64,000 nt of DNA from an uncultured Acidobacteriota bacterium (GCA_963708395.1 CAVPSG010000002.1:1804401-1868400), one strand, 5' to 3'. Shown: positions 1-55,655, numbered from the stretch's first letter. Notes: a model not told the origin generated them from the letters alone. Made by a program: numbers and translations.

Positions 1-540
1 GAAGAGGCGGCGCGCGACGTCGCCGCGAAAGAGCTTGAATCCGCACTGCGTGTCGTGAATGCCCGGCACGGCGAAAAGCTGCACGAGCACGTTGCCCGCC
101 CGTCCGAGGGCGACGCGATAGAAGGGCTGACTCCGCCGCACGAGATCGCGCTGGATGGCGCGCGAGCCGATCGCGACGGGATGGGTCGGGAGCCGCTCGG
201 CGAGCTTGACCCACTCGGTGAGCGGCGTCGAGAGGTCGACGTCGGAGATCAGGATCGGATCGCCCGCCGCCGCCAGGACGCCCGTCCGGATCGCGGCGCC
301 TTTGCCCCGATTGCGCTCGTGGGCGAGGACGGACAGCGGCAGGTTCGCCTCGGCCGCGATGCGCGCCGCGGCCGCGCGCGTCCCGTCGGACGAGCCGTCG
401 TCCACGAGAAGGACCTCCCAGTCCCACCCGCCCGGCCGCGACCGGCGCCACTCGGCCACCGCGCGCAGGCACGCCTCGATTCGCCCTCGCTCGTTGTAGG
501 CCGGCAGAACGAGCGACGCCTTCTCCGCCGGCGCCGTCAC
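1..540 (-). CDS. Family 2 glycosyltransferase, polyprenyl-phosphate hexose synthase-like (Dpm1/ArnC-like); 3' end lies outside the window
   Basis: Minus-strand translation from GTG at 540 reads VTAPAEKASLVLPAYNERGRIEACL..WEVLLVDDGSSDGT..HERNRGKGAAIRTG..ISDVDLSTP, the GT2 signature layout. Absent from the ORF track because it runs off the window edge. Its start overlaps (GTGA) the stop of the upstream methyltransferase. Confidence 0.7.
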   Translation of the reverse strand, partial: MTAPAEKASLVLPAYNERGRIEACLRAVAEWRRSRPGGWDWEVLLVDDGSSDGTRAAAARIAAEANLPLSVLAHERNRGKGAAIRTGVLAAAGDPILISDVDLSTPLTEWVKLAERLPTHPVAIGSRAIQRDLVRRSQPFYRVALGRAGNVLVQLFAVPGIHDTQCGFKLFRGDVARRLF

Positions 541-1211
541 GCCTTCGTCGCCTCGTAGACGAACTGGTAGGCGAAGAGGGTCGGCCAGACGCGGGCGGTT
601 CCGGACGCAAGGGCGCGCACCGGAGCGCGCCAGGGGGCCCTCCCGAGCGCCGGCAGGGCGAGCTCGTAGGGCATTGCCGTCGGCCGGATCGCGTCGATTC
701 GGAAGCCGGCGGCCTCCAGGAGCTCGCGGCCGGTCGCGCGGGTGAAGAACCGCAGGTGCGTGCGGTCGAGGATCCCGCGATCGGCGTACGGGAAGCGGCC
801 GAGGAGAAGGGCGCCGCGCACGCTCGCGTTGGCCACGTTCGGCAGCGAGACGAAGAGCCGGCCGCCGGGGGCGAGCCAGCCGGCGATCCGGGAGAGCAGG
901 TCCTGGGGCCGGACGAGATGCTCGAGCACGTCGGCGCACACGACCACGTCGAAGGACTTCTCCCAGGTCCCGGCGGCGAGCGCGTCCGCGGTGCGCCAGT
1001 CGTCGTACACGGCGCGGGAGTCCGCGGGCGTCGCGGGATCGGGCTCCACGGCGGCGAGGAAGGCGCAGCGGTCGCGGAGCGCGCGCCCCAGGTGGCCTCC
1101 CGCCGCGCCGAGGTCGAGGAGGCGCAGGCCCGCGGGCAGCTCGCGGATCCGGCGCCTCAGCACGTCGTGCGAGGACGCCGGGATCTCCTTCCAGACGTAT
1201 CTTTCGGACAC
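537..1211 (-). CDS. Class I SAM-dependent methyltransferase (Methyltransf_11-like)
   Basis: Motif I LDLGAAGGHLGRAL, then DVVVCADVLEHLV and PGGRLFVSLPN. Probable GTG start at 1211 (VSERYVWKEIP); the 362-aa track ORF extends spuriously upstream into the antisense of nadE. Confidence 0.7.
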   Translation of the reverse strand: MSERYVWKEIPASSHDVLRRRIRELPAGLRLLDLGAAGGHLGRALRDRCAFLAAVEPDPATPADSRAVYDDWRTADALAAGTWEKSFDVVVCADVLEHLVRPQDLLSRIAGWLAPGGRLFVSLPNVANASVRGALLLGRFPYADRGILDRTHLRFFTRATGRELLEAAGFRIDAIRPTAMPYELALPALGRAPWRAPVRALASGTARVWPTLFAYQFVYEATKA

Positions 1212-1227
1212 CGCGTTTCCCCGCGCC

Positions 1228-2877
1228 TCAGCCGCCGAATTTCTGCGCGATCGGGTAGCGGCGCCCCTCGCCGAACGCCTTCCCGGTGATCTTGGGCCCC
1301 GGCGGCATCTGGCGCCGCTTGTACTCGTTGCGGTCGATGCGCCCGGAGATCTCGCGCGCGACGTCGGCGGGGACGCCGGCCCGCTTGGCCGCCGCGTCCG
1401 CGGGAAGCGAGCGATCCACGAGCGCCGAGATGAGCGGGTCGAGCACGTCGTAGAGCGGCAGCGAGTCCGAGTCCTTCTGATTCGGCGCCAGCTCGGCCGA
1501 CGGCGGCTTGGTGATCGAGGAGGCCGGGATGATCTCCGACGCGCGGTTGATGTCGGCCGCGACCGCGTACACGAGCGTCTTCGGAACGTCGGACAGGAGG
1601 GCGTACCCGCCGGCCATGTCGCCATAGAGCGTGCAGTAGCCGACCGCGACCTCCGACTTGTTGCCCGTCGAAAGCAGCAGGTGGCCCTCCGCGTTCGAGA
1701 GCGCCATGAGCAGCGCGCCGCGGATCCGCGCCTGCAGGTTTTCCTCCGTCTTCGTGCGCTCGATCGGGGCGAGCGCCGGCGCGAGCGTTGCGCGATAGGC
1801 GTCGAGCACGGGGCCGATCGGGATCTCGAGGAGCCGGATCTTCAGGCGCCGGGTGAGCTCGCGCGCGTCGGTCACGCTCCCGGGAGACGAATACGGGCCC
1901 GGCATCGCGACGCCGACGACCCGATCGGCCCCGAGCGCCTCGACGGCGATCGCCGCCGTGACCGCCGAGTCGACGCCGCCCGAAAGCCCCAGTACGGCGG
2001 TCCGAAAGCCGCACTTTCCGGCGTAGTCGGCGAGCGCCAGGACGAGCGCCTGGCGCACCCGGCGGGCGTCCGGCTCGCGTTCGGTCAGAGCGGCGCCCCC
2101 TCCGGGGAGGTCGACCGTCCAGAAGTCCTCGGCGAAGGAGCGCCCCCGGCCGACGAGGCGTCCCCGTGCGTCGAACGCGAGCGAGCCGCCGTCGAAGACG
2201 AGGCTGTCGTTTCCGCCCACGAGATTGCAGGAGACGAGCGGCGTGCGGCTCGACCGCGCGATCCGGGACATGAAGCGCTCGCGCAGGCGGGCCTTGCCGA
2301 GCTCCCAGGGCGACGCGGAGACGTTGACGTGCAGGTCGAGCTTCAGCGGGCGCAGGTCCGACACCGGGTCGGCCGCGTAGCGCCGCTGCTTCCAGAACGT
2401 CTTGTCGTTCCAGATGTCCTCGCAGATCGTCACGCCCACGCGCGCGCCCGCGACGCGGAGCACGAGGGGCTTCGTTCCCGGCTCGAAGTAGCGGCCCTCG
2501 TCGAAGACATCGTAAGTCGGCAGCAGGCGCTTGCGGTACGTCGCGACGACGCGGCCGCTCCGCGCGGCGACGGCGACGTTGAAGAGCGCGCGCCCGGCCT
2601 TCGCGGGATTGCGCACGACCGAGCCGTACAGCCAGAGCGCGGGACCGCTCTGACGCGCGATGCGCTTCGCGGCCGCCTCGGACGCCGCGACGAACGCGCG
2701 CCGCTCGAGCAGGTCTCGCGGCGGGTAGCCGCAGACGGCGAGCTCCGGAAACAGCACGACGTCGGCGTGCGCCGCCTCCGCCCGGCGGCCGGCCGAGAGG
2801 ATCTTCGCGGCGTTGCCGGCGAAGTCGCCGATCGTCGTGTCGATCTGGGCCACGCCGACGCGAAGGGAACGGGTCAT
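1228..2877 (-). CDS. nadE: Glutamine-dependent NAD+ synthetase
   Basis: N-terminal nitrilase/CN-hydrolase domain (VGVAQIDTTIGDFAGN..FPELAVCGYPPRD) plus C-terminal NAD synthetase domain (GLSGGVDSAVTAAIA..STGNKSE.AVGYCTLYGD), 549 aa. Confidence 0.9.
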   Translation of the reverse strand: MTRSLRVGVAQIDTTIGDFAGNAAKILSAGRRAEAAHADVVLFPELAVCGYPPRDLLERRAFVAASEAAAKRIARQSGPALWLYGSVVRNPAKAGRALFNVAVAARSGRVVATYRKRLLPTYDVFDEGRYFEPGTKPLVLRVAGARVGVTICEDIWNDKTFWKQRRYAADPVSDLRPLKLDLHVNVSASPWELGKARLRERFMSRIARSSRTPLVSCNLVGGNDSLVFDGGSLAFDARGRLVGRGRSFAEDFWTVDLPGGGAALTEREPDARRVRQALVLALADYAGKCGFRTAVLGLSGGVDSAVTAAIAVEALGADRVVGVAMPGPYSSPGSVTDARELTRRLKIRLLEIPIGPVLDAYRATLAPALAPIERTKTEENLQARIRGALLMALSNAEGHLLLSTGNKSEVAVGYCTLYGDMAGGYALLSDVPKTLVYAVAADINRASEIIPASSITKPPSAELAPNQKDSDSLPLYDVLDPLISALVDRSLPADAAAKRAGVPADVAREISGRIDRNEYKRRQMPPGPKITGKAFGEGRRYPIAQKFGG

Positions 2878-2961
2878 GGGGCCTCGAGTCTTCGGGGTCG
2901 CGCGGGCGGAGTCAAGAAGGGGCCCGGTCGAGCGGATCGACCGGCGGTCGTCATCGCGTTC

Positions 2962-3499
2962 TCAGGATTCGACTTCCCGGACGAGCGGCCGGCCGGACAG
3001 CCGGTCGGCGAGGGTCGGCCTCTCCGGATCGCGCCGGCCGAGCCAGAGCGGCAGCCCGAGCGAGACCGCCGCGAGCGCGGTGCCGGCCCAGCGCCGGGAC
3101 GCCTCCGACGGCGTGAGCACGCGTCCCGACGGGCCCTGGCGCGCGGCGAGCCCGGCGAGGCTCATGCCCACGGTGCGGCCGAAAAGCGTCAGCGGCAGGC
3201 CCACGAACACGAAGGAGAAGAGGAGTCCGAACGCCGCCGCCCAGACGAGTCCCGACAGCCTCGGTCCGCGCCCCGCCCAGGCCACGGCCGTCATCAGCGC
3301 GATCGTGACCGCGAGCGAGGCACCGGAAAGATCCGCGGCGAACGCGGCCGCGCGGAGCCCGAGCGTCGCGACGGGCTCGGGACCCGAGGACGCCTCCCGC
3401 TCCGGTTCGGCCGCCGCGCCCGTCTCGCCGGCGCGGAGCGCCTCTTCGTGGAGCGGAAACTCGGCGAGCGCGTCGGACGGGGGGCGGCCGGAAAGTTCG
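2962..3499 (-). CDS. RDD-family small membrane protein (start uncertain)
   Basis: C-terminal part of the track ORF 2962..3723 has two or three predicted TM helices (LAVTIALMTAVAWAG, LVWAAAFGLLFSFVFVGLPLTLFG) and an RDD-like layout. The upstream 220 bp of that ORF overlaps the TPR gene in another frame and is not credible. No canonical start was found near 3500. Confidence 0.4.
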
Positions 3500-3502
3500 A
3501 GC

Positions 3503-5749
3503 TCAAGGCCGGTGCGAGAGGTGCCGCACGTAGATGCGGCCGAGCAGATCGAGGTCGCCCTTCTGGTAGCGGTCCGCGAACTTGCGGTGCCTCTGGATCT
3601 CCGTGTCCTCGGGGTCCAGCGCCAGCGCCTCGTCGAAAGACTGTTTCGCTTTCGGATAGAGCCCGTTCTGGAGCTGTGTGATCCCCTGGTTCGTGTAGCA
3701 GCGCAGCAGGTACGACCGCGCATCCTGATTGCCCTTGTCGGACTGATAGATCCTCCAGAGCACCGGAATCGCCGTTTCGTACTCGCCCTCGTTGTAGAGC
3801 TTCACCGCGGGCGTGAGCTCCGCGACGTGCTCGGAGGCCTCCGCCATCGACTGCGCGAAGGCGGAGTCGCCCTGGAAGGACGAGGAGACCGCGCTGAAGT
3901 CCTTGAGCGCATCGATGTAGCGCTTCTCGCCGAGCGCCCGCTCGGCGCGGGTCCGGATCGGCGCGGGATCGGTCGCGTCGCTCGATGCCGGCGCTCCAGC
4001 CGCCGCACCGCCCGCCGGAGGCGGCGGCGTATCGCCGGTCGGGCGCGAGAGCGTCTCGAGCAGCTGCTTCGCCTTCGCGTAGTCGGGATCCGAGGGACGA
4101 ATTCGCTTCAACTCCGCCAGGGTCTCGGGGATCTTGCCTTCCTGGAAAAAAGCCGTCGCCTTCTCGAGCGATCCGCCGGGGCGCGCCCCGGCCACCTCCC
4201 GGACGGCCGCGGTCGGACCCGGCTTGGGTTGCCGCAGCACGAGCCACGCACCGACGCCCACGAGCACGACGAAGACGGCGCCGATCAACGCCACCCGCGG
4301 CGGGACCCGGATCGCGAGGCCACCGCGCTTCTTCGGGGCCGGCGCGGCTTCCTGGGGTTCCTCGACGGGCAGGCCCATCTCCTCTTCGGCCGGCGGCTCG
4401 CCCTCCGCCGGCGGCTCGGCCGGAACCTCGGCGAGCTCTCTCTCGATGCGGTCGAGGGCCTCGCGCGCCGTCGCGTTTCCACTGTCGATCGAGAGCGCCT
4501 CGAGATACGACGCCCGCGCGCCCGAGAGGTCGCCCGCGTCGAACGCCGTCTGGCCTTTCTTGAGGATGTGTCCGAGGCGCTGATCGCCCTCGGCCATGAC
4601 CTGGCGCGTCTTCTCGATGCGCGTGACCGCTTCGACGCTGTTGATGTCGATCAGGAAGATGCGCGACCAGATCTCGATGGCGCCTTCGTGATCCCCGCGC
4701 GCCGCGGCTTCGTCGCCCTGGCGCAGGAGATTCGCGACCTCGCGCTCGGAGCGTCCGGCGTCTTCCGCGGGAGCGGCCCGGCGTGCGGCGGCGGGCGGGA
4801 GCGGCGCCGCGGCCGGCGCCGGCTCGGGAGACTCGCTCCAGAGATCGCCCGGGGAACCCGGAGAGCCCGCGGGACGGTCGAGCGGTCCGCGACGCGTCGG
4901 CGGGAGGTCCGGCGGGGGAGTCACCGCGGTCGGCGCGTCGAGGGAGAGTCCGTCGAGAGACAGGGAGTCGAGGCCGCCGGCTGCCGGCGCCGGAGATTCG
5001 CCGCGGTCGAAGGAGATGTGCGGCTCGTCCGAGGGGCCGAATCCCGATCCGCCTGGCTCGCCGAGATCCATCATGCCGCCGAGCTCCGGTTCCGCGGCTG
5101 CGGCGGGGCGCGAGCCCGCCTCGGAGATGCGGCGCTCGAGCAGGGAGACCGCGGGATGCTCCGGATCGAGCGCGCGCATGCGCTCGAGCTCGCGGGACGC
5201 GTCCGGATATCGCCGCGCTTCGAGGAGACCCAGCGCACGGCCGCGCGCGCCCTCGAAGTCGGCCGCGGCGTCCTTGCGCTTTCGCGATTTCTCGATGAGC
5301 TCCGTCGCGTGAACGTTGCCGGGCAGAGCCGTCAGGACCTGCTCGGCGGCGTTGATGCACGCGTCGAAATCACGCGCGTTGTAGCTCTCGACGGCGCGCA
5401 CGAGCATCTTCTCCGCGTCGGCGGCGGTGGGCCGCCCCCGCGCCGGAGCTCCGGCCACGATGGCCTCGAGCTCGATCAGGTCGACGTCTGCGGCGGGATT
5501 CTTGGCCTTCTCGAGCAGTCGCCGCGCGGGCGAGAACCGCGGGTCCATCTTGAGGATGAAGTCGCAGCCGATGAGACAGTCGTCCGTTTTGCCTTCCTGG
5601 AACAGGGAAAGCGTGTGCTTGAAAGTGGTCAGAATCTTGTCGCGCACTTCCCGCGGCAGCGACGGATTGCCCGGATAGAGGCCGGGATTGGTGGAGTTGC
5701 CGCTCACCGGGACGCTCCGCGGACCGGCGTCCGGTTCGGCCGAGACCAT
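3503..5749 (-). CDS. TPR-repeat protein with a central transmembrane helix and Pro/Ala-rich linker
   Basis: ATG at 5749 (MVSAEPDAG..) preceded by a stop-free antisense run. N-terminal TPR-like helices, low-complexity PAPAAAP segment, one TM (ALIGAVFVVLVGVGAWLVL), C-terminal TPRs. The first ~183 codons of the 931-aa track ORF are antisense to ftcD. Confidence 0.55.
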   Translation of the reverse strand: MVSAEPDAGPRSVPVSGNSTNPGLYPGNPSLPREVRDKILTTFKHTLSLFQEGKTDDCLIGCDFILKMDPRFSPARRLLEKAKNPAADVDLIELEAIVAGAPARGRPTAADAEKMLVRAVESYNARDFDACINAAEQVLTALPGNVHATELIEKSRKRKDAAADFEGARGRALGLLEARRYPDASRELERMRALDPEHPAVSLLERRISEAGSRPAAAAEPELGGMMDLGEPGGSGFGPSDEPHISFDRGESPAPAAGGLDSLSLDGLSLDAPTAVTPPPDLPPTRRGPLDRPAGSPGSPGDLWSESPEPAPAAAPLPPAAARRAAPAEDAGRSEREVANLLRQGDEAAARGDHEGAIEIWSRIFLIDINSVEAVTRIEKTRQVMAEGDQRLGHILKKGQTAFDAGDLSGARASYLEALSIDSGNATAREALDRIERELAEVPAEPPAEGEPPAEEEMGLPVEEPQEAAPAPKKRGGLAIRVPPRVALIGAVFVVLVGVGAWLVLRQPKPGPTAAVREVAGARPGGSLEKATAFFQEGKIPETLAELKRIRPSDPDYAKAKQLLETLSRPTGDTPPPPAGGAAAGAPASSDATDPAPIRTRAERALGEKRYIDALKDFSAVSSSFQGDSAFAQSMAEASEHVAELTPAVKLYNEGEYETAIPVLWRIYQSDKGNQDARSYLLRCYTNQGITQLQNGLYPKAKQSFDEALALDPEDTEIQRHRKFADRYQKGDLDLLGRIYVRHLSHRP

Positions 5750-5789
5750 TGGCAATTCACGGTTGTGCCGATTATAAACTCTCGGCGGC

Positions 5790-6696
5790 ATGCGGACCGT
5801 GATCGAAAGCGTCCCGAACATTTCCGAGGGGCGCGACCGCGTCCGCGTGGAGGAAATCGCCGCCGCCGTGCGCGCCGTTCCGGGGACGCGGCTCCTCGGC
5901 GTATCCTCCGACTCTTCGCACAACCGGAGTGTCCTGACGCTCGTGGGCGACGCGGCCGGCGTCGCGGCGGCGATTCGGGCCCTCTTCGAGGCGGCGCTTC
6001 CGCGCATCGATCTGACGAAGCACTCGGGCGAGCATCCGCGCATGGGCGCCGTGGACGTCGTCCCGTTCATCCCGATCCGCGGCGCGACGGTCGAGCAGTG
6101 CGTCGCGCTCTCGCGCCGAGGTCGGCGCCGAGATCGCCGAGCGGTTCGGCGTGCCGGTGTATCTCTACGAGGACTCGGCGTCCTCGGACCGCCGGCGCAA
6201 CCTGGCCGACATCCGCAAGGGCGAGTTCGAGGGCTTCGCCGAGAAGATGAAGGACGCCGGATGGAAGCCCGACTTCGGGCCCGACCGCCCGCACGCAACG
6301 GCCGGCGTCGTCGCCGTGGGCGCGCGCGCGCCGCTGATCGCCTACAACATCAACCTCGGAACGCGCGATCTCGCCGTGGCCGACCGCATTGCGAAGGCGA
6401 TCCGCCACGTCGGGGGCGGCTTCCGCTACGTGAAGGCGATGGGCGTCGAGCTCGCCGACCGTGGCCAGGTGCAGGTCTCGATCAACATGACGAACTACCG
6501 GAAGACGCCGCTCCACCGCGTCTTCGAGTGCGTCCGCTCCGAGGCCGAGCGCCACGGAGTGCCCGTCGTGGGCTCCGAGATCGTGGGCCTGACCCCGGCC
6601 GACGCGCTCTTTGCCGCCGCGGAGCACTACCTTCGAATCGAGAACTTCTCCGGCGATCAGGTGCTCGAGACGAAACTGCTCGAGGCGGAAGAGTAA
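5790..6696 (+). CDS. ftcD: Glutamate formimidoyltransferase (FTCD N-terminal domain family); frameshifted near 6113-6118 in this assembly
   Basis: MRTVIESVPNISEGRD..VLTLVGD.. matches the formiminotransferase N-terminus. It continues in the +1 frame as PVYLYEDSA..IRKGEFEGF..KPDFGP..LIAYNINL..QVSINMTNYRKTP..VGSEIVGL. One extra C in tcgcgcCgaggtc breaks the frame. Confidence 0.7.
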
Positions 6697-6705
6697 GAGA
6701 GAGAG

Positions 6706-7239
6706 TCATTCCGGCCCGGAGTGCCGGCTCCGCTCGGGTCCGAGAGTCTGGTCCGCTTGCGCGCTCCGCAGCATCGTGATTCTCGTGACGGGATGGAGCT
6801 CCATGTGCCGGTGACGCTTGTCCTGGACGTAGATGCCATCCGCTTCGATGTGATCGCCGACACGCGGCACCGGAATCTTGCTGCCGCACTTCCAGCAACG
6901 AAACACGAAGAATCGAAAAACGGGGTGCCGACAGACGATCTCGAGCTCCAACATGTCCTGGCCCAACCCTTCATAGTTCCTCTGATTCGCGAGGTGCGCG
7001 TACTCCGGGTCGAGTCTCAGGTACACGATCGCGTCTCCGTCGAGGACGTAGCGCGCGTCGGTGACGATGCCGCGCAGGGTGATGCAAGGCTCCTGAATGA
7101 CGAGCCGCTGCGGCGAATAGACGCATTGCCACCAGTTGCCTTCGCACTCTCCCGGCACGGTTTGGGCGCGGGATGCAACGCACTCGGCGGAGCAAACCGA
7201 GACGACCACCAGGATGAGTCGAGTCAGCCGCCGAGGCAC
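6706..7239 (-). CDS. Secreted Cys-rich hypothetical protein
   Basis: Signal peptide MPRRLTRLILVVVSVCSAECVASRA, then a 150-aa domain with at least 8 Cys. No family recognised. Confidence 0.45.
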   Translation of the reverse strand: MPRRLTRLILVVVSVCSAECVASRAQTVPGECEGNWWQCVYSPQRLVIQEPCITLRGIVTDARYVLDGDAIVYLRLDPEYAHLANQRNYEGLGQDMLELEIVCRHPVFRFFVFRCWKCGSKIPVPRVGDHIEADGIYVQDKRHRHMELHPVTRITMLRSAQADQTLGPERSRHSGPE

Positions 7240-7267
7240 ACGGGTTCCCTCGAGCCCGAGGTGAGGG

Positions 7268-8545
7268 TCAACGAGCCAAGTCCCGTCCGCCCCGGGCCGT
7301 CGCTGCCGAGGCCATGAAGACGACGACGATCGGGTCGACCGGATGGCGGTAGCGGACTTCCGAGTGCGTCAGGTAGTAGGCGATCGGGAGGAAGACCAGG
7401 GGGATCACCAGAGGAACGACGCCGTCCCGGCGGTCCCGGACCGCCCGATAGAGGCCCGCAAAGGCGAGCGCCGAGACGAGACTGTAGGCGAAAGCGTTCG
7501 GAAGTCCCTCCTCGTCCAGGGTCCAGCGCGGAGGGAAATCCCACAGGTTGGTCCAGGTGTACAGAACGCGCCGGAGAGTGAGGACCGCGAAGCGAGAGGG
7601 CCGGCGCGAGATCACCTCCCAGGCTTCGCGCTGCTTTTCCGCCATGTACGCCGGCTCGCCGAGCGTCTTCACCTTCTCCATCTCCGCGGGGTTGTTTCCG
7701 GGGATCACCTGAAAATTGGAGGCATGACGCGTGTCGTCGCTGTTGCCGACGAGGAACTCCTGGCCGATGCTGCCGCGGAAAGCGACGAAGCGTCCGTAGA
7801 CCCGGCTGCAGCGCCAGACCCAGGGTCCGGTCGCACAGAGGAACACCAGAGACGCGGCGGCCGCGACGGCCGTGCAATTCTCTCCGCGCCGCCAATGCCG
7901 CAGCCAGACCCACGCGCCGAGGAAGGGCAACGTGGAGAGAACGGCCGGGTTCGTGAGCACCGCCACTCCCCACAACGCGCCGTACCCGAGCCACGCGCTC
8001 GAGCTCGTCGACCGTTCCAGGCGCAGGGTCGCCAGGACCGTGAGGCTGAACAACAGCGTCGTCAGGGTCGTTTCCCAGACGGTCGCGTTCGCCAGGGCGA
8101 TCGCCCAGGGGAAGAAAGCCCAGATCCACCCGGCCCAAACCGCGGTGCGGAGCCCGAAGACCCGGCGGGCGATGAAGAAAACCGGCAGACACGTCATGGC
8201 CGAAAAGAGGTTGTTCAAGGTCAGCATGACCAGGGCCGACGAAGCCGTGTAGGTTCCGAACAGCCGGAAGACGCCGGCGACCAGGTACGTGTACACGGGA
8301 GGCACGAGGGCCGTGGGTCCCGTCGGCTCGGGAAAGGGCGAGCTGAATCCGTAGCCGGAAGCGATCGACCGCGCGACCCTCGCCGTCTCCCAGCCGAACG
8401 TCCAATGATCCCGCGCGGGATCCAGTCGATTCGTATAGGTGAAGCTCATGACCACCAGGCGAAGCAGGAAGGCCACTGTGGCCATCGTCCACGGGGAGCG
8501 AAGCCACGGCCCACTCACTCGCAGACGCGCCGCGGCACCCGTCAC
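7268..8545 (-). CDS. GT-C fold polytopic membrane glycosyltransferase (ArnT/PMT-like), paralogue 1
   Basis: 425 aa, about 10-12 predicted TM helices, periplasmic loop motif RLDPARDHWTFGWETARVARSIASGYGF, large C-terminal soluble region. Architecture resembles lipid-carrier-dependent GT-C transferases; exact family not assigned. Confidence 0.5.
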   Translation of the reverse strand: MTGAAARLRVSGPWLRSPWTMATVAFLLRLVVMSFTYTNRLDPARDHWTFGWETARVARSIASGYGFSSPFPEPTGPTALVPPVYTYLVAGVFRLFGTYTASSALVMLTLNNLFSAMTCLPVFFIARRVFGLRTAVWAGWIWAFFPWAIALANATVWETTLTTLLFSLTVLATLRLERSTSSSAWLGYGALWGVAVLTNPAVLSTLPFLGAWVWLRHWRRGENCTAVAAAASLVFLCATGPWVWRCSRVYGRFVAFRGSIGQEFLVGNSDDTRHASNFQVIPGNNPAEMEKVKTLGEPAYMAEKQREAWEVISRRPSRFAVLTLRRVLYTWTNLWDFPPRWTLDEEGLPNAFAYSLVSALAFAGLYRAVRDRRDGVVPLVIPLVFLPIAYYLTHSEVRYRHPVDPIVVVFMASAATARGGRDLAR

Positions 8546-8554
8546 GCGCGGATC

Positions 8555-9839
8555 TTAGACCGATACCGGCGCGGGGTCGGGACGCGAAGAAGTCACAGCG
8601 TATGCCGCGAAGACGACGACGACGGGGTCGATCGGATGCCGATAACGAGAGTCCGAATGGGTCAAGTAGTAGGCGATGGGAAATAAGACCAACGGGATCA
8701 CGAGAGCCGTCACGCCGTCCCGACGGCGTCGGATCGCCCGATAGAGTCCGATAAGCGCCAGCAGCGACACGAAACTGTAGGTGAGAAGGTTCGGCAGGCC
8801 CGTACCGTCCAGCTTCCAGCGAAGAGGGAAATTCCAGAATCCCGTCCAGGTGTACAGAACGCGCCGGAGAGTCAGGACGGCGAAGCGAAAGGGCCGGCGC
8901 GAGATCACGTCCCGGGCGTCGCGCTGCCTTTCTGCCATGTACGCCGGCTCGCCGAGCCTCTTCACCTTCTCCATCTCCACGGGGTCGTCTCCGGGAAGCA
9001 CCGTGAAGTTGGACGGAACGCGCGGGTCCGTATTCCCGACCAGGATCTCCAGACCGACACCGCCGCGGAAGGCGACGAAGCGTCCGTAGATCTGGCTGCA
9101 GCGCCAGACCCAGGGTCCCGTCGCACAGAGGAAGACCAGAGACGCGGCGGCCGCGACGGCCGTGCAATTCTCTCCGCGTCGCCAATGCCGCAGCCAGACC
9201 CACGCGCCGAGAAAAGGCAACGTGGAAAGGACGGCCGGGTCCGTGAGCGCGGCCACTCCCCACAACGCGCCGTAGCCGAGCCAGGCGCCCCAGCTCGTCG
9301 ATCGTTCCAGGCGCAGCGTCGCCAGGACCGCGAGGCTGAGCAACAGCGTCGTCAGCGTCGTATCCCAGACGGTGGTATTCGCCAGCGCAATCGCCCAGGG
9401 GAACAAAGCCCAGATCCACCCCGCCCAGGCCGCGGTGCGGAGCCCGAAGACCCGGCGCGCGATGAAGAAAACCGGCAGACACGTCATCGCCGAAAACAAG
9501 TCGTTGAAGGTCAGCATGACCAGGGCCGACGAAGTCGTATAGGTTCCGAACAACCGGAAGACGCCGGCGACGAGGTACGTGTAAACGGGAGGCACGAGGG
9601 CCGTGGGCCCCGTCGGCTCGGGGTAGGGCGAGCTGAATCCGTAGCCGGAAGCGATCGACCGCGCGACCCTCGCCGTCTCCCAGCCGAACGTCCAGTGATC
9701 CCGCGCGGGATCCAATCGATCCTTGTAAGTGAAGCTCATGACCACCAGGCGAAGCAGGAAGGCCGCTGCGGCCATCGTCCACGGAGAACCGAGCCATCGC
9801 CTGGCCTCGACTCGCGGGGGCGTCGTCGGGCGCGTCATG
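8555..9839 (-). CDS. GT-C fold polytopic membrane glycosyltransferase (ArnT/PMT-like), paralogue 2
   Basis: About 80% identical to paralogue 1 over nearly its whole length (same motifs; compare MATVAFLLRLVVMSFTYTNRLDPARDHW with MAAAAFLLRLVVMSFTYKDRLDPARDHW). Probable ATG near 9839; the track ORF extends to 9931. Confidence 0.5.
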
Positions 9840-9954
9840 GCTCCCAGGCGTGCAAGCGGCGGTCTGCGAGAAGCATCTAAACAGATCCTAAACTTTCGAC
9901 GAGCGCGATCGAGTTCCACCCGCTCGCACAACTTTCCGCTATGTTAGGGCTGCG

Positions 9955-11178
9955 ATGGTGTCGATGGCGGCTTTCGCTTCCATGGCGTGGCGTGGAGTCT
10001 CTCTCGTTCTTCTCGTCACGCTCTCGATTTCGATCCTCTATTCCGTCCTCGTTCTGCTGCGGGTCGCGTTCTTCCGCCTTCCCGCAAAGTCCGACCGCGC
10101 GTTCACGCCCCCGGCGACTCTCCTGAAGCCGGTCTGCGGCCTCGAGCCCGAGCCGGTTCTCTACGACTGCCTGCGATCGTTCTGCGAGCAGGATTACCCG
10201 AGCTACCAGATCATCTTCGGCGTCCGTCGGCCCGACGATCCTGCCGTTGCCGTCATCGAGCGCCTGTTACGCGACACGACCCATCCCGACGCCTCGCTGA
10301 TCGTCGATGGCCGTGTCTACGGCGCCAATCGCAAGCTCTCCAACCTCACGAACATGTATGAGGCCGCCCGCCACGACATCCTGGTCTCGGCGGACGCCGA
10401 CGGAAGCGTCGGGCCCGACTACCTGCGATCCGTTGTCGCGCCTTTCGCCAGCAGCCGGGTCGGCGCGTTGACCTGCCTGTACGTCGGCAAGCCCCAGAGG
10501 GGCGTGTGGTCGGCGCTCGGCGCGGATTTCATCAACGACGTGATCCTTCCTTCGGTCTTGATGGCCCTGGCGCTGGGCAAACTGCGCTTTCTCTTCGGGA
10601 ACACGATGGCTGTGCGCCGGGAGGTGCTCGAAGAGATCGGAGGATTTCGAGGGTTGACGACGTACCTCGCCGATGACTATCTGATCGGCCGACGGGTCAG
10701 TGACCGGGGCCTGGACGTCCGCCTGGCTTCCTACGTGGTCGAGACCGTCATTTCGGAGCCCCGCCTGTCGTCGCTCTTCGCCCACGAGCTGCGCTGGGGC
10801 CGCACGTTTCGAACGGTGCGGCCCGCCGGATGGACTCTCTCGGTGCTGACCGACACGACGGTCCTGGCGTTTCTTTTCCTCCTGGTCTCCGGCGGCCAAT
10901 CCCTGGCGGTCGGCCTCTTCGCGGCGGCGGCCGGGCTTCGGTTCGGCCTTCACAAAATGGTGCGACGCCGGTTCGGCATCGACGGGCCGGATCCACTCTG
11001 GCTGGTTCCGGTGCGGGATGTCCTGACATTCGCCGTCCGGATCGCGAGCCTGGTGGGCCGTCGCCTCGTGTGGAAGAAGGAGCGTTTCTTCGTCGTCTCC
11101 TCCGGGCACCTCGAAACGGAGGCGAGCCCTTCCGAGCGGAATCGATGCGCGCCGGACTCCGTGTCAGCGCAACAGTAG
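9955..11178 (+). CDS. hpnI: Hopanoid-associated glycosyltransferase HpnI (GT21, ceramide-glucosyltransferase-like)
   Basis: N-terminal TM, then TLLKPVCGLEPEPVLYDCLRSFCEQDYPSYQIIFGV.., D.D and QxxRW-like region (AHELRWGRT), C-terminal TM helices. Layout and motifs of the HpnI family (recalled from memory, not searched). Confidence 0.7.
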   Translation: MVSMAAFASMAWRGVSLVLLVTLSISILYSVLVLLRVAFFRLPAKSDRAFTPPATLLKPVCGLEPEPVLYDCLRSFCEQDYPSYQIIFGVRRPDDPAVAVIERLLRDTTHPDASLIVDGRVYGANRKLSNLTNMYEAARHDILVSADADGSVGPDYLRSVVAPFASSRVGALTCLYVGKPQRGVWSALGADFINDVILPSVLMALALGKLRFLFGNTMAVRREVLEEIGGFRGLTTYLADDYLIGRRVSDRGLDVRLASYVVETVISEPRLSSLFAHELRWGRTFRTVRPAGWTLSVLTDTTVLAFLFLLVSGGQSLAVGLFAAAAGLRFGLHKMVRRRFGIDGPDPLWLVPVRDVLTFAVRIASLVGRRLVWKKERFFVVSSGHLETEASPSERNRCAPDSVSAQQ

Positions 11179-12789
11179 CGACGCGAAGACACGCCACTGC
11201 GTGCCCCGGACCGCGGCGGTCCGTTCGGGGTAGGCGGTCACGCGGTCGTTCCAGGTCCAGGCTCCTCCGACCGCCAGGGCGCCGTAGACCGGCAGGCGCC
11301 CTTCCACCCGAAACGACTGGAGGCGGCTCGAGAGCGATGCCTCGACCGGGAGCGATGCCCCGCTGGTCGTATGAGTCCACAGGGCTTCGTAGCCGATCCG
11401 GAGGAGGTCCAGGCCGGCCCGGTCGAGTCTCGCCAGTGAGCGCACGCCGCCGCCGACGCCGTAGTCGTACGGCCGGCCGGCGGCGGTGAACTGATACAGC
11501 ATGTCGTTCGCCTGCAGGGCCGTGACGGGGAAGCCGACGCCGGCGATCTCGGTACGCAGCTCCAATCCGCGTGACAGCGGGAAGCGCGAGAGCAAGTCGA
11601 CCGAAAACGTCTGCGTCGAGAAGATCTCGGACTGATTGTTCGTGTACTCGTATCCCATGAAAAGACCCAGGCGATGCTCGGCGGCCGCCGACGACGAGAT
11701 CCCCCAGGACGCGAGCAATCCACGCTCCAGCCACCGGCTGCCGACGTCTTTCGACGAAGGGTAGATTTCGAGCAAGGCCTCGAAGGAGTCGAAGGGCTTG
11801 TGGTTCTCGCCGGAAAAGGCGTCGCCGTAGCGGATCAATACGCCGAGAAGACCCTGGTTCGGGAAGAGCACGACGGAGGGAGGGCCGTCGTTCAGCCGCT
11901 GGTATCCGGCATACACCTCGGCCGAGAACGCCGCGGGCATGCGGTCGTCGGGGTTCGGAAAGTCTTTCGCCAGCTCTCCGCGAACGTGCCGGTTGAAGAG
12001 GCCGGGGGGGTTGAGCACGGCCGCGCCGATCTCGCGGAAGAGCCGGCTGGCGCCGCTGGCCCTGTTGTCCAGGAGCATGGTCGAAAGACGGTACAAAACC
12101 TCGCCCGTCACGGCGCCGCCGAGAGAGGTGGTGAGGACGTCGTTGAGCGATGCCGCCTCGGTCTCGCCGAAGTACTCCCACATCAGGCTGCCGGCCGCCG
12201 CGAAGAGGGTCGATTCCCAGAAGTTGAAGCCGTTCGTGCGCGAGGCGTTGTAGTAGATGGTTCCGTTGAAGGGGTGGAGGGTCTGGTTGGTCGGAAAGTC
12301 GTCGTGGTGGTCGTAGACCAGGCCCGTCTTCAGATTGGCTTTCCAGGAGTCCAGCGAGATGAATGACCAGGGATCTTCCAGGATGTACCGCTCGATGAGC
12401 CACATGGCGACGTTCACTCCGAAGACTTCCCCGGCGGCCATCCAAAAGTACTTCTTCGGCGCCGCGGCCGGTGCCGCTCGACCTTCCGAGCCGAGCCGGA
12501 GGGGCAGCCCGAGGGAGAGATCCGGAGGCGTGGTCAGCGGTTCGGCAGCCGGGGAGAGCGGATCGAAGAGGGAGCTCCCACGTTCGTCCGGAAAAAGACG
12601 GAACCCGGGTTGCTCGATTGCGGGTCCGCTTTGCTTCTCCAGCCGGAGCGGCGCGTCGCTGCACAACTCGAGCGCGCGCCCCGGAGCCGCCGCCGCGGCT
12701 CCCCCGAAGAGCAGCGTCCCCGCCGCCCAGAGCGACAGGAGGCTGTTTGGCGGGCGCACCCGGCGCAGACCGCTCTTCCGGATACGCAC
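11164..12789 (-). CDS. Secreted hypothetical protein (possibly DUF3943-like), opposite strand between hpnI and hpnJ
   Basis: GTG at 12789 gives signal peptide ..LRRVRPPNSLLSLWAAGTLLFGGAAAAAP. Trp/Tyr-rich 540-aa mature protein (NGFNFWESTLFAAAGSLMWEYFGE). A start at 12936 would overlap the hpnJ start, so was rejected. Confidence 0.45.
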   Translation of the reverse strand: MRIRKSGLRRVRPPNSLLSLWAAGTLLFGGAAAAAPGRALELCSDAPLRLEKQSGPAIEQPGFRLFPDERGSSLFDPLSPAAEPLTTPPDLSLGLPLRLGSEGRAAPAAAPKKYFWMAAGEVFGVNVAMWLIERYILEDPWSFISLDSWKANLKTGLVYDHHDDFPTNQTLHPFNGTIYYNASRTNGFNFWESTLFAAAGSLMWEYFGETEAASLNDVLTTSLGGAVTGEVLYRLSTMLLDNRASGASRLFREIGAAVLNPPGLFNRHVRGELAKDFPNPDDRMPAAFSAEVYAGYQRLNDGPPSVVLFPNQGLLGVLIRYGDAFSGENHKPFDSFEALLEIYPSSKDVGSRWLERGLLASWGISSSAAAEHRLGLFMGYEYTNNQSEIFSTQTFSVDLLSRFPLSRGLELRTEIAGVGFPVTALQANDMLYQFTAAGRPYDYGVGGGVRSLARLDRAGLDLLRIGYEALWTHTTSGASLPVEASLSSRLQSFRVEGRLPVYGALAVGGAWTWNDRVTAYPERTAAVRGTQWRVFASLLLR

Positions 12790-12902
12790 GGAATGATCTT
12801 CCTCGTTGCTGCGCCCGGAAGTCGGGCGGGAACGGCGGATGATAGCGCACGCGCCCGGTCGATGGTCTTCCCGAGACCTGATACGCTCGGGGGCTGACGG
12901 GC

Positions 12903-14327
12903 ATGAAAAAGACGCTCTTCTTGAATCCTCCCTCATACGAGGGGTTCGACGGGGGAGCGGGCTCGAGGTACCAGGCGCGCCGAGAGATCCGCTCGTTCTG
13001 GTATCCGACCTGGCTGGCCCAACCGGCGGCTCTGGTGCCGGGTAGCCGGCTCGTGGACGCGCCGGCTCGCGGGCTCTCGGTGGCCGACGTCCTGCCTCTG
13101 GCCGGGCAGTACGAGCTGGCGGTGTTTCACACGAGCACGCCGTCCTTTGCCGAGGACGTGCGCGTGGCGGAGGAGTTCAAGAGGGCCAACCCGAACCTTC
13201 AGATCGGGTTCGTAGGTGCGCACGTGGCCGTGTCCCCGGAGGCGTCGCTTGGGGCGTCGGAGGCGGTGGACTTCGTCGCGCGCGCCGAATTCGACTACTC
13301 GATACTCGAGGTTGCCGAGGGAAGGCCGTTCGATGCCGTGGATGGAATCTCCTTCAAAGTGGACGGCCGGGTCGTGCACAACAAGGAGCGCGCGACGCTG
13401 GAGAACATGGACGCGCTGCCGTTTGTCACCGACGTCTACAAACGAGATCTCCACATCGAGGATTACTTCATCGGGTACCTGTTGCACCCCTACGTCTCGC
13501 TCTACACGGGCCGCGGCTGCCGGTCGCGGTGCACGTTCTGTCTCTGGCCGCAAACGATCGGGGGCCACCGCTACCGCACGCGCAGTCCCGAGAACGTGAT
13601 CGAGGAGATCCGGCGGGCGAAGGAGTTCTTTCCGCAGGCCAGGGAATTCTTCTTCGACGACGACACGTTCACCGACGATCTCCCGCGGGCGGAGGCGATT
13701 GCGCGGGGGCTCGGCGAGCTCGGGGTCACGTGGTCCTGCAACGCGAAGGCGATCGTTCCGTACGAGACGCTGAAGATTCTCAAGGACAATGGGCTGCGAC
13801 TGCTGCTGGTGGGCTACGAGACGGGCAGCCAGCAGATCCTGAACAACATCCGCAAGGGGACGCGCGTGGACGTCGCGCGGCGCTTCACCGCGGACTGCCA
13901 CAAGCTCGGCGTCGTCATCCATGGCACGTTCATCGTGGGGCTGCCGGGCGAGACGCCGGAGACGATCGAGAGCACGATCCGATTCGCAAACGAGATCAAC
14001 CCGCACACGATCCAGGTATCGCTGGCCGCCCCGTATCCCGGCACCGAGCTGTACCAGCAGGCGTCGGCCAACGGATGGCTCGACCTGGACAGCCAGAGCC
14101 TCGTCGGCTCGAACGGCGTGCAGGTCTCCTCGATCTCCTATCCGCACCTGTCCAAGAAGGAGATCTTTCAGGCGGTCGCCAAGATGTATCGGCGCTTCTA
14201 CTTCCGACCCAAGAAGATCGTCGAGATGACCTCCGAGATGATCCGGAGCCCCGAGATGATGCGGCGCCGGCTGCGCGAGGGCGTCGAGTTCATGCACTTC
14301 TTGACGGGCCGCGAAGATCACGTCTGA
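12903..14327 (+). CDS. hpnJ: Hopanoid biosynthesis B12-binding radical SAM protein HpnJ
   Basis: MKKTLFLNPPSYEGFDGGAGSRYQARREIRSFWYPTWLAQPAALV.. (HpnJ-type N-terminus), B12-binding-like region, radical-SAM Cys cluster YTGRGCRSRCTFCLWP, 474 aa. Confidence 0.75.
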   Translation: MKKTLFLNPPSYEGFDGGAGSRYQARREIRSFWYPTWLAQPAALVPGSRLVDAPARGLSVADVLPLAGQYELAVFHTSTPSFAEDVRVAEEFKRANPNLQIGFVGAHVAVSPEASLGASEAVDFVARAEFDYSILEVAEGRPFDAVDGISFKVDGRVVHNKERATLENMDALPFVTDVYKRDLHIEDYFIGYLLHPYVSLYTGRGCRSRCTFCLWPQTIGGHRYRTRSPENVIEEIRRAKEFFPQAREFFFDDDTFTDDLPRAEAIARGLGELGVTWSCNAKAIVPYETLKILKDNGLRLLLVGYETGSQQILNNIRKGTRVDVARRFTADCHKLGVVIHGTFIVGLPGETPETIESTIRFANEINPHTIQVSLAAPYPGTELYQQASANGWLDLDSQSLVGSNGVQVSSISYPHLSKKEIFQAVAKMYRRFYFRPKKIVEMTSEMIRSPEMMRRRLREGVEFMHFLTGREDHV

Positions 14328-14385
14328 GGATTGCGAAGCGACGGCCGCGGCCGGGAGGTCGAGGAGGCCCGCCGGATCCGCGCGG

Positions 14386-17895: not shown

Positions 17896-18478
17896 CCGCC
17901 GGCGCCGGCACGACGAACTTCTGAGACTTCTTCCACGAGGTCCGCGAATCCACGGGGATGAAGGCGAAGAGATACCTCGAGTCGAAGGCGGCGCGCATGT
18001 GCACCACGAGGTTGTGGCTCGGCCACTCCGGCCGGACGTGAAAGGCGAGCAGGTTCTCTCGGGAAACGAGCTGACGCTTCACGTCTTCGAAATCCGCGGT
18101 CGTCGCGCGCGAGAGCGGCTTGTCATCCAGAGTCTCGACCACGACGTACTCGCGCGTGACCGGGTCGAAAGTGACGGAGACGTCGTACCGCCGCGAGTCG
18201 AGGAACGTGTCGAACCAGTACCGGTACTGCCGGTAGAGGCGGATCTCGTAGCGGATCGTGGTCTCGAGGCCGGCCTCGATCCGGCGCGCGAGCTCCGGGT
18301 TCAGGACTCCGGAGAGCTCGAACTTCAGGAACACGTCCGCGCCCCGGTTGGTGACCCGCAGGAGCGTGACCATTGGCCGCGCCGGCTCTCCGGCCCCGGC
18401 GTCGGCCGCCCGAGCCGGCGGCGACCCGTTCAGAGAAAGAGCCAAAAGGGCCACCAAGGCCCGTCGTTTCCGCCCCAC
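17885..18478 (-). CDS. DUF4390-like periplasmic protein upstream of the NtrY-like kinase
   Basis: Signal peptide MGRKRRALVALLALSLNGSPPARA, about 170-aa domain. Conserved position immediately 5' of the kinase, with overlap. Confidence 0.5.
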   Translation of the reverse strand: MGRKRRALVALLALSLNGSPPARAADAGAGEPARPMVTLLRVTNRGADVFLKFELSGVLNPELARRIEAGLETTIRYEIRLYRQYRYWFDTFLDSRRYDVSVTFDPVTREYVVVETLDDKPLSRATTADFEDVKRQLVSRENLLAFHVRPEWPSHNLVVHMRAAFDSRYLFAFIPVDSRTSWKKSQKFVVPAPAGAP

Positions 18479-18527
18479 GAGCGGATTCTAGGCGAGGCGG
18501 CGGCCCGGGGTCGGGGCGCGGCGGGGG

Positions 18528-28701: not shown

Positions 28702-28807
28702 TTTGTTTTGTCCTGAAAAAGTGTCTCCATTGTATACCAATCGGGCGCGTTCCGGAATCGGCATCCGCCGGAAACGGGCGGGCGAACCGTTAGAATCGGC
28801 CCCCTCC

Positions 28808-31660
<2,853 letters not shown>

Positions 31661-31664
<4 letters not shown>

Positions 31665-37127: not shown

Positions 37128-37144
37128 CGCGCTCAGACGTCCTC

Positions 37145-37524: not shown

Positions 37525-37537
37525 CCTTTCTGCTGAC

Positions 37538-37828: not shown

Positions 37829-37844
37829 GGATGGGCATAATACA

Positions 37845-40010: not shown

Positions 40011-40089
40011 GGCGGACGCACTCGGATGCCCTCAAGATTGCAACCTCGATTGCGATGACCCAGAGTCGAAACATCGCCCAACCGGGGTC

Positions 40090-55631: not shown

Positions 55632-55655
55632 CGGAGAGACCCCCCCGGAGGCTGA

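Follow-up and report, generated by a model that had tools for sequence, protein, structure and literature searches.

Results

Genes of the window

The window, a 64-kb stretch of DNA, carries two unrelated units in its first part, a tandem pair of GT-C glycosyltransferase genes and a conserved housekeeping operon. The features considered here are as follows.

1–540, minus strand: GT2 glycosyltransferase (PF00535, 3.7e-24), N-terminal 180 aa, cut by the window start
537–1211, minus strand: class I SAM methyltransferase, MTase (Methyltransf_23, 3e-19)
1228–2877, minus strand: nadE, backbone gene between the two units
about 2962–3510, minus strand: RDD, backbone gene between the two units
3503 to about 5755, minus strand: TPR protein, backbone gene between the two units
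5790–6779, plus strand: FTCD, backbone gene between the two units, with an apparent frameshift
6706–7239, minus strand: small177, a 177-aa protein, rich in Cys and hydrophobic at its N-terminus
7268–8545, minus strand: GT-C paralogue A (PMT_2, 38.9 bits)
8555–9838, minus strand: GT-C paralogue B, the copy nearest hpnI (PMT_2, 40.1 bits)
9955–11178, plus strand: hpnI, bacteriohopanetetrol glucosamine-pathway glycosyltransferase (TIGR03472, 394 bits against a cutoff of 310)
11164–12789, minus strand: DUF3943 protein (PF13084, 3.1e-32), wedged between hpnI and hpnJ
12903–14327, plus strand: hpnJ, hopanoid-associated B12/radical-SAM enzyme (TIGR03471, 809 bits against a cutoff of 577.6)

All features of the earlier note were present, with the identities and coordinates it gave. 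Paralogue B probably starts at the ATG at 9838 (orthologues begin MTRPTT), the longest ORF reaching a TTG at 9931; with this start, which the orthologues use, B and hpnI are divergent and 116 bp apart. Paralogue A starts 9 bp past the stop of B, and small177 lies 29 bp downstream of A, the three genes probably forming one operon. Small177 gave no significant Pfam or NCBIfam match, is kept downstream of the GT-C gene only in a close clade (71–83% identity), and is probably secreted. The DUF3943 start was set from 541-aa orthologues, the longest ORF extending to 12936. Both hpnI and hpnJ pass their TIGRFAM cutoffs and are genuine; the window ORFs that were examined included no hpnK. The antisense "shadow" ORFs arise, as is usual, from the GC content of about 67%.

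Fold and family of the tandem membrane proteins

The description of the two proteins in the earlier note as GT-C-type membrane transferases is supported by profile scores and by structural matches. Both paralogues exceeded the PMT_2 (PF13231) gathering score of 26.1, with a match that spans only about 160 residues of the N-terminal module (residues 82–244). When NCBIfam was scanned at E<=0.01, the sole match was a weak one to archaeal STT3, and neither paralogue matched the ArnT family; the profile classification that the note had suggested as a check places both proteins in PMT_2. An AlphaFold (AF2) model of paralogue A (pLDDT 78.9, pTM 0.83) was all helical and ended in TM helices, and Foldseek ranks 1–35 against the PDB were all GT-C enzymes (E down to 2.6e-6, TMq 0.34–0.53), with AglB, STT3, ArnT and PglB as the best matches.

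We found 709 homologues of paralogue A, most of them from Acidobacteriota. In a MAFFT alignment of 31 sequences, D46, H47, E53, T54 and R56 were invariant and D42 nearly so, and all of these residues sit right after predicted TM1 (residues 18–36), in the first extracytoplasmic loop; the acidic ones may act in catalysis. The pair belongs to a well-conserved PMT_2 subfamily, about 430 aa in length, most of whose members come from Acidobacteriota. In comparison with bacterial PMT_2/GT39-like proteins, the paralogues pass the gathering threshold but have no MIR domains, eukaryotic Pmt structures were weaker structural matches than AglB or STT3, and no evidence for protein O-mannosylation emerged.

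Duplication history of paralogues A and B

Global MAFFT alignment of A and B gave an identity of about 80%, in agreement with the figure in the earlier note; BLASTP gave 84% over 392 aa, and identity at the nucleotide level was 88%. The two-copy arrangement is also present in loci L003, L005 and L011 (L005 and L011 are short-read, k141 assemblies), making four species-level genomes with the window. Its recurrence in three further species-level genomes shows that the duplication is no assembly artefact. Across the four genomes the C-terminal third separates A-type from B-type orthologues, with identities of 81–93% within type and 76–82% between types, and that of B groups with the hpnI-proximal copies of the other three. 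In the N-terminal part, the paralogues of one genome resemble each other at least as much as orthologues do, and dS was 0.21–0.31 for paralogue pairs versus 0.27–0.47 for orthologues. With dN/dS at 0.10–0.27 across both copies (0.13–0.24 for B against its orthologues), both are under purifying selection.

This sequence pattern argues for homogenisation of the N-terminal two thirds by gene conversion, while the C-terminal third stays diverged; residues 251–347 are a diverged segment. The duplication had been taken to be recent; instead, region-wise identity and dS place it before the four species, the pair being old and partly homogenised. A is the ancestral-type copy, as L001 and L008–L014 each carry a single, A-type gene. 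Very strong constraint could explain part of the N-terminal homogeneity, and the lowered dS favours gene conversion.

The MTase-GT2 operon and the GT2 partners of the GT-C family

The translational coupling of the MTase and GT2 was found at 537–540, where the GT2 start codon GTG (540–538) overlaps the MTase TGA (539–537) to give GTGA, and the overlap is kept in relatives. The GT2 has a full length of about 244 aa, as judged from its 97% identical orthologue in L003 (19348–20082), in which neither a TM nor a GtrA domain is present. Its closest solved relatives are ArnC (4e-15, catalytic core only) and P. furiosus DPMS (5.5e-15), and its best NCBIfam equivalog score is weak (ArnC, 50.6 bits against a cutoff of 529), all equivalogs being far under cutoff. 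An unclassified polytopic membrane protein (454 aa) of its own sits beside the GT2 in close relatives. The MTase has 3706 homologues, and the best 120 of these, the matches listed, are all at least 69% identical.

The two genes belong to a conserved backbone of the order smpB-lpxC-FTCD-TPR-RDD-nadE-MTase-GT2, and L001, L003 and L061–L063 have its intervening genes in this order too. In L061–L063, lpxC abuts FTCD and nadE-MTase-GT2 is unchanged, with no GT-C or hpn gene at this backbone (GT-C absent within 8 kb). Because relatives carry the backbone without GT-C or hpn genes, the 6-kb proximity of MTase-GT2 to the GT-C pair is incidental, and the single cluster proposed earlier separates into a backbone operon, TPR-RDD-nadE-MTase-GT2, and the block that holds the GT-C genes. 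The block genes have a GC3 of 0.80–0.89 versus 0.90–0.95 for the backbone.

Elsewhere, the most widespread neighbour of the GT-C family is a GT2. At 10 Terriglobia loci (L012, L016–L024) a fusion of GT2 with GtrA (PF04138)/DPMS_TM follows the GT-C gene on the same strand after about 200 bp, and at Acidobacteriaceae-type loci (L033–L054) an ArnC/PgfS-like GT2 lies about 5 kb from the GT-C gene. No homologue of the GT2-GtrA fusion was found in the 64-kb window by tblastn, none of the window ORFs put through the Pfam scan matched PF04138, and the window encodes no GtrB/DPMS-type donor synthase or GtrA-like flippase; the only candidate GT2 lies 6 kb off in the separately conserved operon, not adjacent to the pair. 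The earlier suggestion that a GT2 makes the lipid-linked donor is therefore plausible at the family level, from the Terriglobia fusion, but that GT2 is of a different type from the one in the window. By analogy, a polyprenyl-phosphate-sugar donor is plausible for the GT-C subfamily as a whole.

Three-component Gtr-type periplasmic systems combine a GtrB-like GT2 synthase, a GtrA flippase and a GT-C transferase (PMC11127046). The window shares the GT-C fold transferase with these systems, and the Terriglobia loci combine synthase and putative flippase in one gene right after the GT-C gene. Unlike the Gtr systems, the window has no GtrB/GtrA adjacent to the pair or elsewhere in its 64 kb, shows no O-antigen or phage context around the pair, and has its transferase in two tandem copies that have undergone partial gene conversion.

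Linkage to hpnI and hpnJ

Neighbourhoods were compared over flanks of ±10 kb per locus. The order hpnJ-DUF3943-hpnI-GT-C-small177 is kept in six species-level genomes, and linkage of GT-C to hpn genes is confined to one narrow Thermoanaerobaculia-like clade (homologues at least 83% identical); the genomes that bear it are close relatives with collinearity across about 20 kb and hence do not count as independent observations. Neither hpnI nor hpnJ occurs within 10 kb of 40 GT-C homologue loci at 76% identity or less (L012–L054), and outgroup hpnI loci of 52–72% identity have no PMT_2 gene. In L009, L010 and L014, hpnI is cut down to remnants of 39–61 aa beside an intact GT-C gene. DUF3943 remains beside GT-C even where hpnI is lost, and outgroup hpnI-hpnJ loci lack it. 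The synteny comparison across relatives thus found no conserved GT-C-hpn linkage beyond the close clade, an outcome that the earlier note had itself named as speaking against its hopanoid proposal.

The canonical hpn side-chain module (hpnI-hpnJ-hpnK-hpnL in L060, hpnI-hpnJ in L057–L059) has no GT-C gene; in the window hpnI and hpnJ stand beside the GT-C pair but are split by DUF3943. No GT-C or DUF3943 is reported in the hopanoid gene neighbourhoods of Acidobacteria (PMC5462960) or in shc-centred microsynteny across bacteria (bioRxiv 10.1101/2025.07.29.667474). B-type copies were found only in genomes with intact hpnI (4/4: the window, L003, L005 and L011), a restriction with which a hopanoid-related role for B is compatible.

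Discussion

The structural resemblance to ArnT, the undecaprenyl-phosphate-L-Ara4N:lipid A transferase, raises the possibility that the paralogues add a sugar to lipid A or core phosphates, like ArnT, RgtA-D or LgmB. ArnT (GT83; PDB 5EZM/5F15) has the GT-C fold in common with them (Foldseek 5ezm, E=1.4e-4) as well as the acidic residues of the first periplasmic loop, database annotators label homologues "ArnT family" or "Ara4N transferase-like", and the GT2 near the distant homologues in L033–L054 resembles ArnC along its whole length (218 bits). However, identity to ArnT is just 14–16%, a PDB sequence search with the GT-C family profile returned nothing relevant, ArnT included, and archaeal and eukaryotic OST subunits outscore ArnT structurally. 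ArnT is about 550 aa long with a C-terminal periplasmic domain, whereas the paralogues, at 425–427 aa, are ~125 aa shorter and lack it; ArnT sits in the arnBCADTEF operon, whereas the window pair has hpnI, DUF3943 and small177 as neighbours, and arnA, arnB and arnD had no match among the window ORFs covered by a non-exhaustive scan. We consider this role unlikely, in line with the earlier note, which had set the canonical lipid A aminoarabinose pathway aside. A single system, in which the DPM1/ArnC-like GT2 makes a polyprenyl-phosphate-sugar, the MTase modifies the donor or the product and the GT-C pair consumes the donor, appears slightly more doubtful. It would fit the polyprenyl-phosphate glycosyltransferases among the solved GT2 relatives, the lack of any other such GT2 candidate in the window and the conserved MTase-GT2 coupling. 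Yet the two pairs have four unrelated backbone genes between them, one of these on the opposite strand, the nadE-MTase-GT2 operon stands in L061–L063 with no GT-C nearby, and the window-type GT2 lacks a membrane anchor, scores far below the ArnC cutoff and adjoins its own polytopic membrane protein in close relatives; the conserved partner of the GT-C family elsewhere is another GT2 type, 30–36% identical, with TM or GtrA domains.

The arrangement beside hpnI could also mean that one or both paralogues, especially B, glycosylate bacteriohopanepolyol periplasmically from a lipid-linked donor, with an HpnI/HpnJ product, for example, as the acceptor, in which case the product would be a novel composite hopanoid. 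The divergent placement of B and hpnI, the gene order kept in six genomes, the restriction of B-type copies to genomes with intact hpnI and the lower GC3 shared by the block genes speak for such a role. Against it stand the origin of all linked genomes in one collinear clade, the 40 more distant loci without hpnI or hpnJ, the outgroup hpnI loci without a PMT_2 gene, the GT-C genes that stay intact beside hpnI remnants and the two studies of hopanoid gene neighbourhoods that report neither GT-C nor DUF3943. A dedicated hopanoid-glycosylation system is unlikely, and we give hopanoid glycosylation by either paralogue only a small chance.

We favour, with moderate confidence, the explanation that the two GT-C paralogues have a common donor and different acceptors or positions, and that the adjacency to hpnI is lineage-specific. 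As in other GT-C enzymes, each protein would use a polyprenyl-phosphate-sugar as donor, on the outer side of the inner membrane, and move its monosaccharide onto an envelope acceptor, with the Asp/Glu cluster of the first extracytoplasmic loop (D42/D46-H47...E53) carrying out catalysis. In GT-C enzymes the N-terminal module is conserved and the C-terminal module is variable. As in those enzymes, the homogenised N-terminal module may comprise the catalytic loop and the donor-lipid site, and the distinct C-terminal thirds may correspond to the variable part that faces the acceptor; donor type, periplasmic action and the split between donor and acceptor modules are all drawn by analogy. Because the N-terminal module is shared and the C-terminal thirds are distinct, the same donor with two acceptors or positions is most likely. 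The pair would be co-transcribed with small177, and the block (two-component system, hpnJ, DUF3943, hpnI, GT-C, small177) lies inserted between lpxC and FTCD when compared with other class members. The hpnI adjacency and the 6-kb distance from nadE-MTase-GT2 are a lineage-specific arrangement with no sign of a shared pathway.

The pair is best seen as a new member of the PMT_2 GT-C subfamily, with hpnI as a neighbour and at most a candidate partner. A slimmer chance still attaches to a variant in which B was duplicated beside hpnI, kept the donor module of A by gene conversion and had its C-terminal third retuned to bacteriohopanepolyol. Were this so, B would be the first GT-C enzyme that glycosylates a hopanoid at the periplasmic face, and the pair would show how acceptor modules of GT-C enzymes can be swapped in nature.

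Gene organization around the tandem GT-C genes

The window has a GC content of ~68%, and long antisense ORFs consequently shadow every real gene. The gene map for 1-14.4 kb was derived from third-position GC, Pfam and NCBIfam. In this map, the gene-level features described in the earlier note were real and correctly identified, and so was the GTGA start/stop overlap between the methyltransferase (MTase) and GT2 genes.

Genes in window 1-14.4 kb (coordinates, strand, feature)
1-540, -, GT2, truncated at the window edge
537-1211, -, class I SAM methyltransferase (MTase)
1228-2877, -, nadE
~2962-3510, -, RDD protein
3503 to ~5755, -, TPR protein
5790-6779, +, glutamate formimidoyltransferase (FTCD), apparent frameshift
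6706-7239, -, Cys-rich 177-aa protein (small177), probably secreted
7268-8545, -, GT-C paralogue A
8555-9838, -, GT-C paralogue B
9955-11178, +, hpnI (NCBIfam 394 bits vs equivalog cutoff 310)
11164 to ~12789 (longest reading to 12936), -, DUF3943 protein
12903-14327, +, hpnJ (NCBIfam 809 bits vs equivalog cutoff 577.6)

The DUF3943 gene separates hpnI from hpnJ and is read from the other strand; its 3' end overlaps that of hpnI by 15 bp. The small177 protein has a hydrophobic N-terminus, is encoded 29 bp downstream of paralogue A and matched no family in Pfam or NCBIfam. Its conservation (71-83%) is limited to the close clade, where it is invariably downstream of the GT-C gene, and it showed no homology to the small proteins encoded ahead of hpnI at three outgroup loci (L057-L059).

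FTCD is broken into two frames near 6100-6150, with the N-terminal part in the 5790 frame and the C-terminal part in ORF 6151-6696, while two relatives (L001 and L003) have an unbroken 301-aa orthologue. Further housekeeping genes are seemingly split or frameshifted at 14386-17895, 30054-31664 and 54979-61436; among them, judged by translations, are apparent UvrA, ClpX, Lon and Rho fragments, as well as an NtrY/NtrX-like kinase and a sigma-54 regulator merged as a single 1169-aa ORF. This pattern suggests long-read assembly indel errors, not true pseudogenes, and isolated frameshifts in the window should therefore not be over-interpreted.

Elsewhere, the region 36243-43038 resembles an integrated mobile element. 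After a tRNA gene (36243-36315) comes a stretch of lower GC (0.60-0.65), whose products are a DNA methylase-Mrr fusion (38233-39411), a beta-propeller protein of the virginiamycin-B-lyase family (40090-41187) and a protein carrying a phage-integrase N-terminal domain (41467-43038). An 844-aa ORF at 26407-28941 (-) had no Pfam match; its antisense frames (27326-28060 +) give long (GV)n-like repeats, so this region codes for a highly repetitive low-complexity protein.

The two membrane proteins are GT-C-type enzymes distinct from ArnT

Both membrane proteins exceed the Pfam PMT_2 threshold, and the pair shares 84% protein and 88% DNA sequence identity. A family-alignment profile gave no relevant match among PDB sequences, and thus no solved structure at the sequence level. 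An AlphaFold2 model of paralogue A (31-sequence alignment; pLDDT 78.9, pTM 0.83) was compared with the PDB by Foldseek, and the best 35 matches were all GT-C glycosyltransferases (AglB, STT3, ArnT, PglB, ALG9, Pmt4, Emb and DPY19 among them) at 11-16% sequence identity. The model thus predicts the GT-C fold for the pair.

Public records name these proteins "ArnT" or "Ara4N transferase". This label is unsupported because the NCBIfam scan returned no ArnT match, and because A and B fall ~125 residues short of the length of ArnT and have no counterpart to its periplasmic domain. The family is large and closely conserved: it numbers 709 matches at E<=1e-5, mainly in Acidobacteriota (Thermoanaerobaculia and Terriglobia), and the 29 database homologues that were aligned share 59-90% identity. 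MAGs with the labels Dormiibacterota, Heliobacteriaceae, Candidatus Aquilonibacter and Verrucomicrobiae (L015, L031, L034 and L054) also contain subfamily homologues (37-63% identity), through either lateral transfer or binning contamination.

GT-C enzymes place catalytic acidic residues just after the first transmembrane helix. In the family alignment, D46, H47, E53, T54 and R56 are invariant and directly follow this helix; by analogy, they may have a catalytic role.

The duplication is old and partly homogenized

To the earlier note, the duplication looked recent. Comparison with relatives showed that it is not, and that the two parts of the gene have different histories. Over residues 251-405, the copies fall into two clear types. 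Window A, the single copy of L001 and the distal copies of L003, L005 and L011 form the A type, and window B forms the B type with the copies nearest hpnI in the latter three genomes (L003, L005 and L011), with nucleotide identities of 81-93% within a type vs 76-82% between types. Over residues 14-250, copies from the same genome (84-95%) are equal to or closer than orthologues. The dS values between A and B follow the same division, at 0.21-0.31 for the N-terminal part (orthologues, 0.27-0.47) and 0.49-0.57 for the C-terminal part. Taken together, these patterns indicate that the duplication is older than the split of at least four species and that gene conversion later homogenized the N-terminal two thirds.

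An assembly artefact was rejected as the source of the duplication, as independent MAGs built from short reads contain the pair as well. Nor is one window copy a pseudogene, since both ORFs are intact and dN/dS between orthologues is 0.10-0.27 for both copies, indicating purifying selection.

The N-terminal module of GT-C enzymes holds both the catalytic loop and the site for the donor lipid, while the C-terminal part is variable. Given this modular layout, a homogenized N-terminal part and a diverged C-terminal part would most simply be read as A and B using one donor and two acceptors or positions.

The hopanoid genes adjoin the GT-C genes in a single lineage

The earlier note had proposed a candidate lipid or hopanoid glycosylation system, with the proximity to hpnI and hpnJ as a hint, and had named a lack of consistent linkage to hpn genes among relatives as one outcome that would count against it. 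This lack is what we observed. Both genes adjoin the GT-C gene only for homologues of at least 83% identity, that is, within a clade collinear over ~20 kb; at the 40 loci with homologues of 31-76% identity, neither was found within 10 kb. Even within this clade, hpnI survives in three species-level genomes (L009, L010 and L014) only as 39-61-aa remnants, located between DUF3943 and a GT-C gene that is itself full-length and free of stop codons. Conversely, hpnI and hpnJ are contiguous in L057-L059 (hpnI 66-72% identity), where no PMT_2 gene lies within 7 kb, and a more distant locus (L060; hpnI 52%) has the canonical hpnI-hpnJ-hpnK-hpnL order. DUF3943 still adjoins the GT-C gene where hpnI is lost and is missing from the outgroup hpnI-hpnJ loci.

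Published accounts of hopanoid gene neighbourhoods, in Acidobacteria (PMC5462960) and in shc-centred microsynteny across bacteria (bioRxiv 10.1101/2025.07.29.667474), make no mention of any GT-C gene or of DUF3943, and a literature search for an association of either with hpn genes found none. In favour of a hopanoid role, the B-type copy occurs only in four genomes with intact hpnI and is hpnI-proximal each time; however, these genomes are close kin, and the co-occurrence is therefore weak evidence. The hopanoid connection is thus a lineage-specific adjacency that fails comparative testing.

The MTase-GT2 pair is a separate unit

The earlier note had joined GT2, MTase and GT-C into a single candidate system; we found instead two evolutionarily independent units that are juxtaposed. 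The MTase has 3706 homologues (E<=1e-10), with at least 69% identity in all 120 best matches listed. In three relatives' loci (L061-L063; 71-76% identity), the order is smpB-lpxC-FTCD-TPR-RDD-nadE-MTase-GT2 with the 4-bp MTase/GT2 overlap retained; lpxC directly adjoins FTCD, and GT-C, hpnI, hpnJ and DUF3943 are all absent. In the window clade, DUF4390, a histidine kinase, a sigma-54 regulator, hpnJ, DUF3943, hpnI, GT-C and small177 lie between lpxC and FTCD, a block of ~12 kb (window 6700-18500) inserted relative to L061-L063. That GT2 and MTase lie ~6 kb from the GT-C pair is a by-product of this position.

Across the six genes between small177 and hpnJ inclusive, GC3 is slightly reduced, at 0.80-0.89 vs 0.90-0.95 for the backbone genes, a weak signal; base composition does not mark a foreign island, as GC over 6-15 kb is 0.65-0.68 and the window as a whole averages 0.68 +/- 0.033, a difference of no more than ~1 SD. 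An hpnJ-like N-terminal fragment (43-73% identity over 52-98 aa) just downstream of small177 in the relatives L008 (11867-12159, -) and L014 (11868-12137, -) hints at an earlier rearrangement near the block.

The window-type GT2, 244 aa at full length in a 97%-identical orthologue, has no membrane anchor. Its nearest solved relatives are ArnC and archaeal DPMS (E about 5e-15, catalytic core only), so "Dpm1/ArnC-like" was a fair description, yet it scores far under all equivalog cutoffs. Close relatives encode, convergently with GT2, a polytopic membrane protein of 454-457 aa (L001 18923-20287, -; L003 20030-21284, -), a location just past the left edge of the window. It carries the conserved motifs MWAxDFLAIWGWKGK and THPEYPxGLPLL and may be the true membrane partner of the MTase-GT2 pair. 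Its candidacy as a GT-C partner found no support: there was no Pfam hit at E<=0.1, hhalign to the GT-C family gave <1% probability, and the PDB profile search gave no match, which leaves the protein unclassified.

GT-C relatives are accompanied by a different GT2

We fetched 52 genomic loci and clustered the neighbouring ORFs for 48 of them; the sole neighbour conserved between distinct clades was a GT2. At 10 Terriglobia loci, a 388-aa fusion of GT2 to a GtrA/DPMS transmembrane domain (PF00535 + PF04138) lies ~200 bp downstream on the same strand as GT-C, and a shorter GT2 occupies the equivalent position at three other loci. At Acidobacteriaceae-type loci, the GT2 is ~5 kb from GT-C and resembles ArnC/PgfS along its entire length (218 bits, ArnC model). 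At one locus with a 71%-identical homologue (L004 11504-14279), the gene after GT-C encodes an LPG_synthase_TM (HpnL/AglD-like) membrane protein, with a second PMT_2 protein (629-aa) and a DUF2279 protein in the vicinity, a distinct multi-GT-C neighbourhood.

Gtr-type periplasmic glycosylation has three components: a GT2 that charges polyprenyl phosphate, a GtrA-like protein that flips the product and a GT-C enzyme that transfers the sugar (PMC11127046). The conserved GT2(-GtrA) neighbour has the same signature. The general logic of a lipid-phosphate-sugar donor for GT-C, as put forward in the earlier note, is supported by these neighbours, but not the choice of the window GT2, which is of a different type: the partner GT2s share 30-36% identity with it and carry membrane domains, and none of the partner type was found in the 64-kb window.

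Implications

What remains is an uncharacterized GT-C subfamily, mostly of Acidobacteriota, represented here by an old, partially homogenized tandem pair. A hopanoid role, if true, would mean new composite BHPs, relevant to biomarker geochemistry, but the comparative evidence makes it unlikely. The present tests also bear on annotation, since the ArnT names in public records find no support in them. The pair, with a predicted catalytic and donor module kept near-identical by gene conversion and a diverged C-terminal third, illustrates GT-C modularity. If our best explanation is true, it would add another uncharacterized envelope-glycosylation GT-C family in the Acidobacteriota, a soil-abundant and poorly studied phylum.
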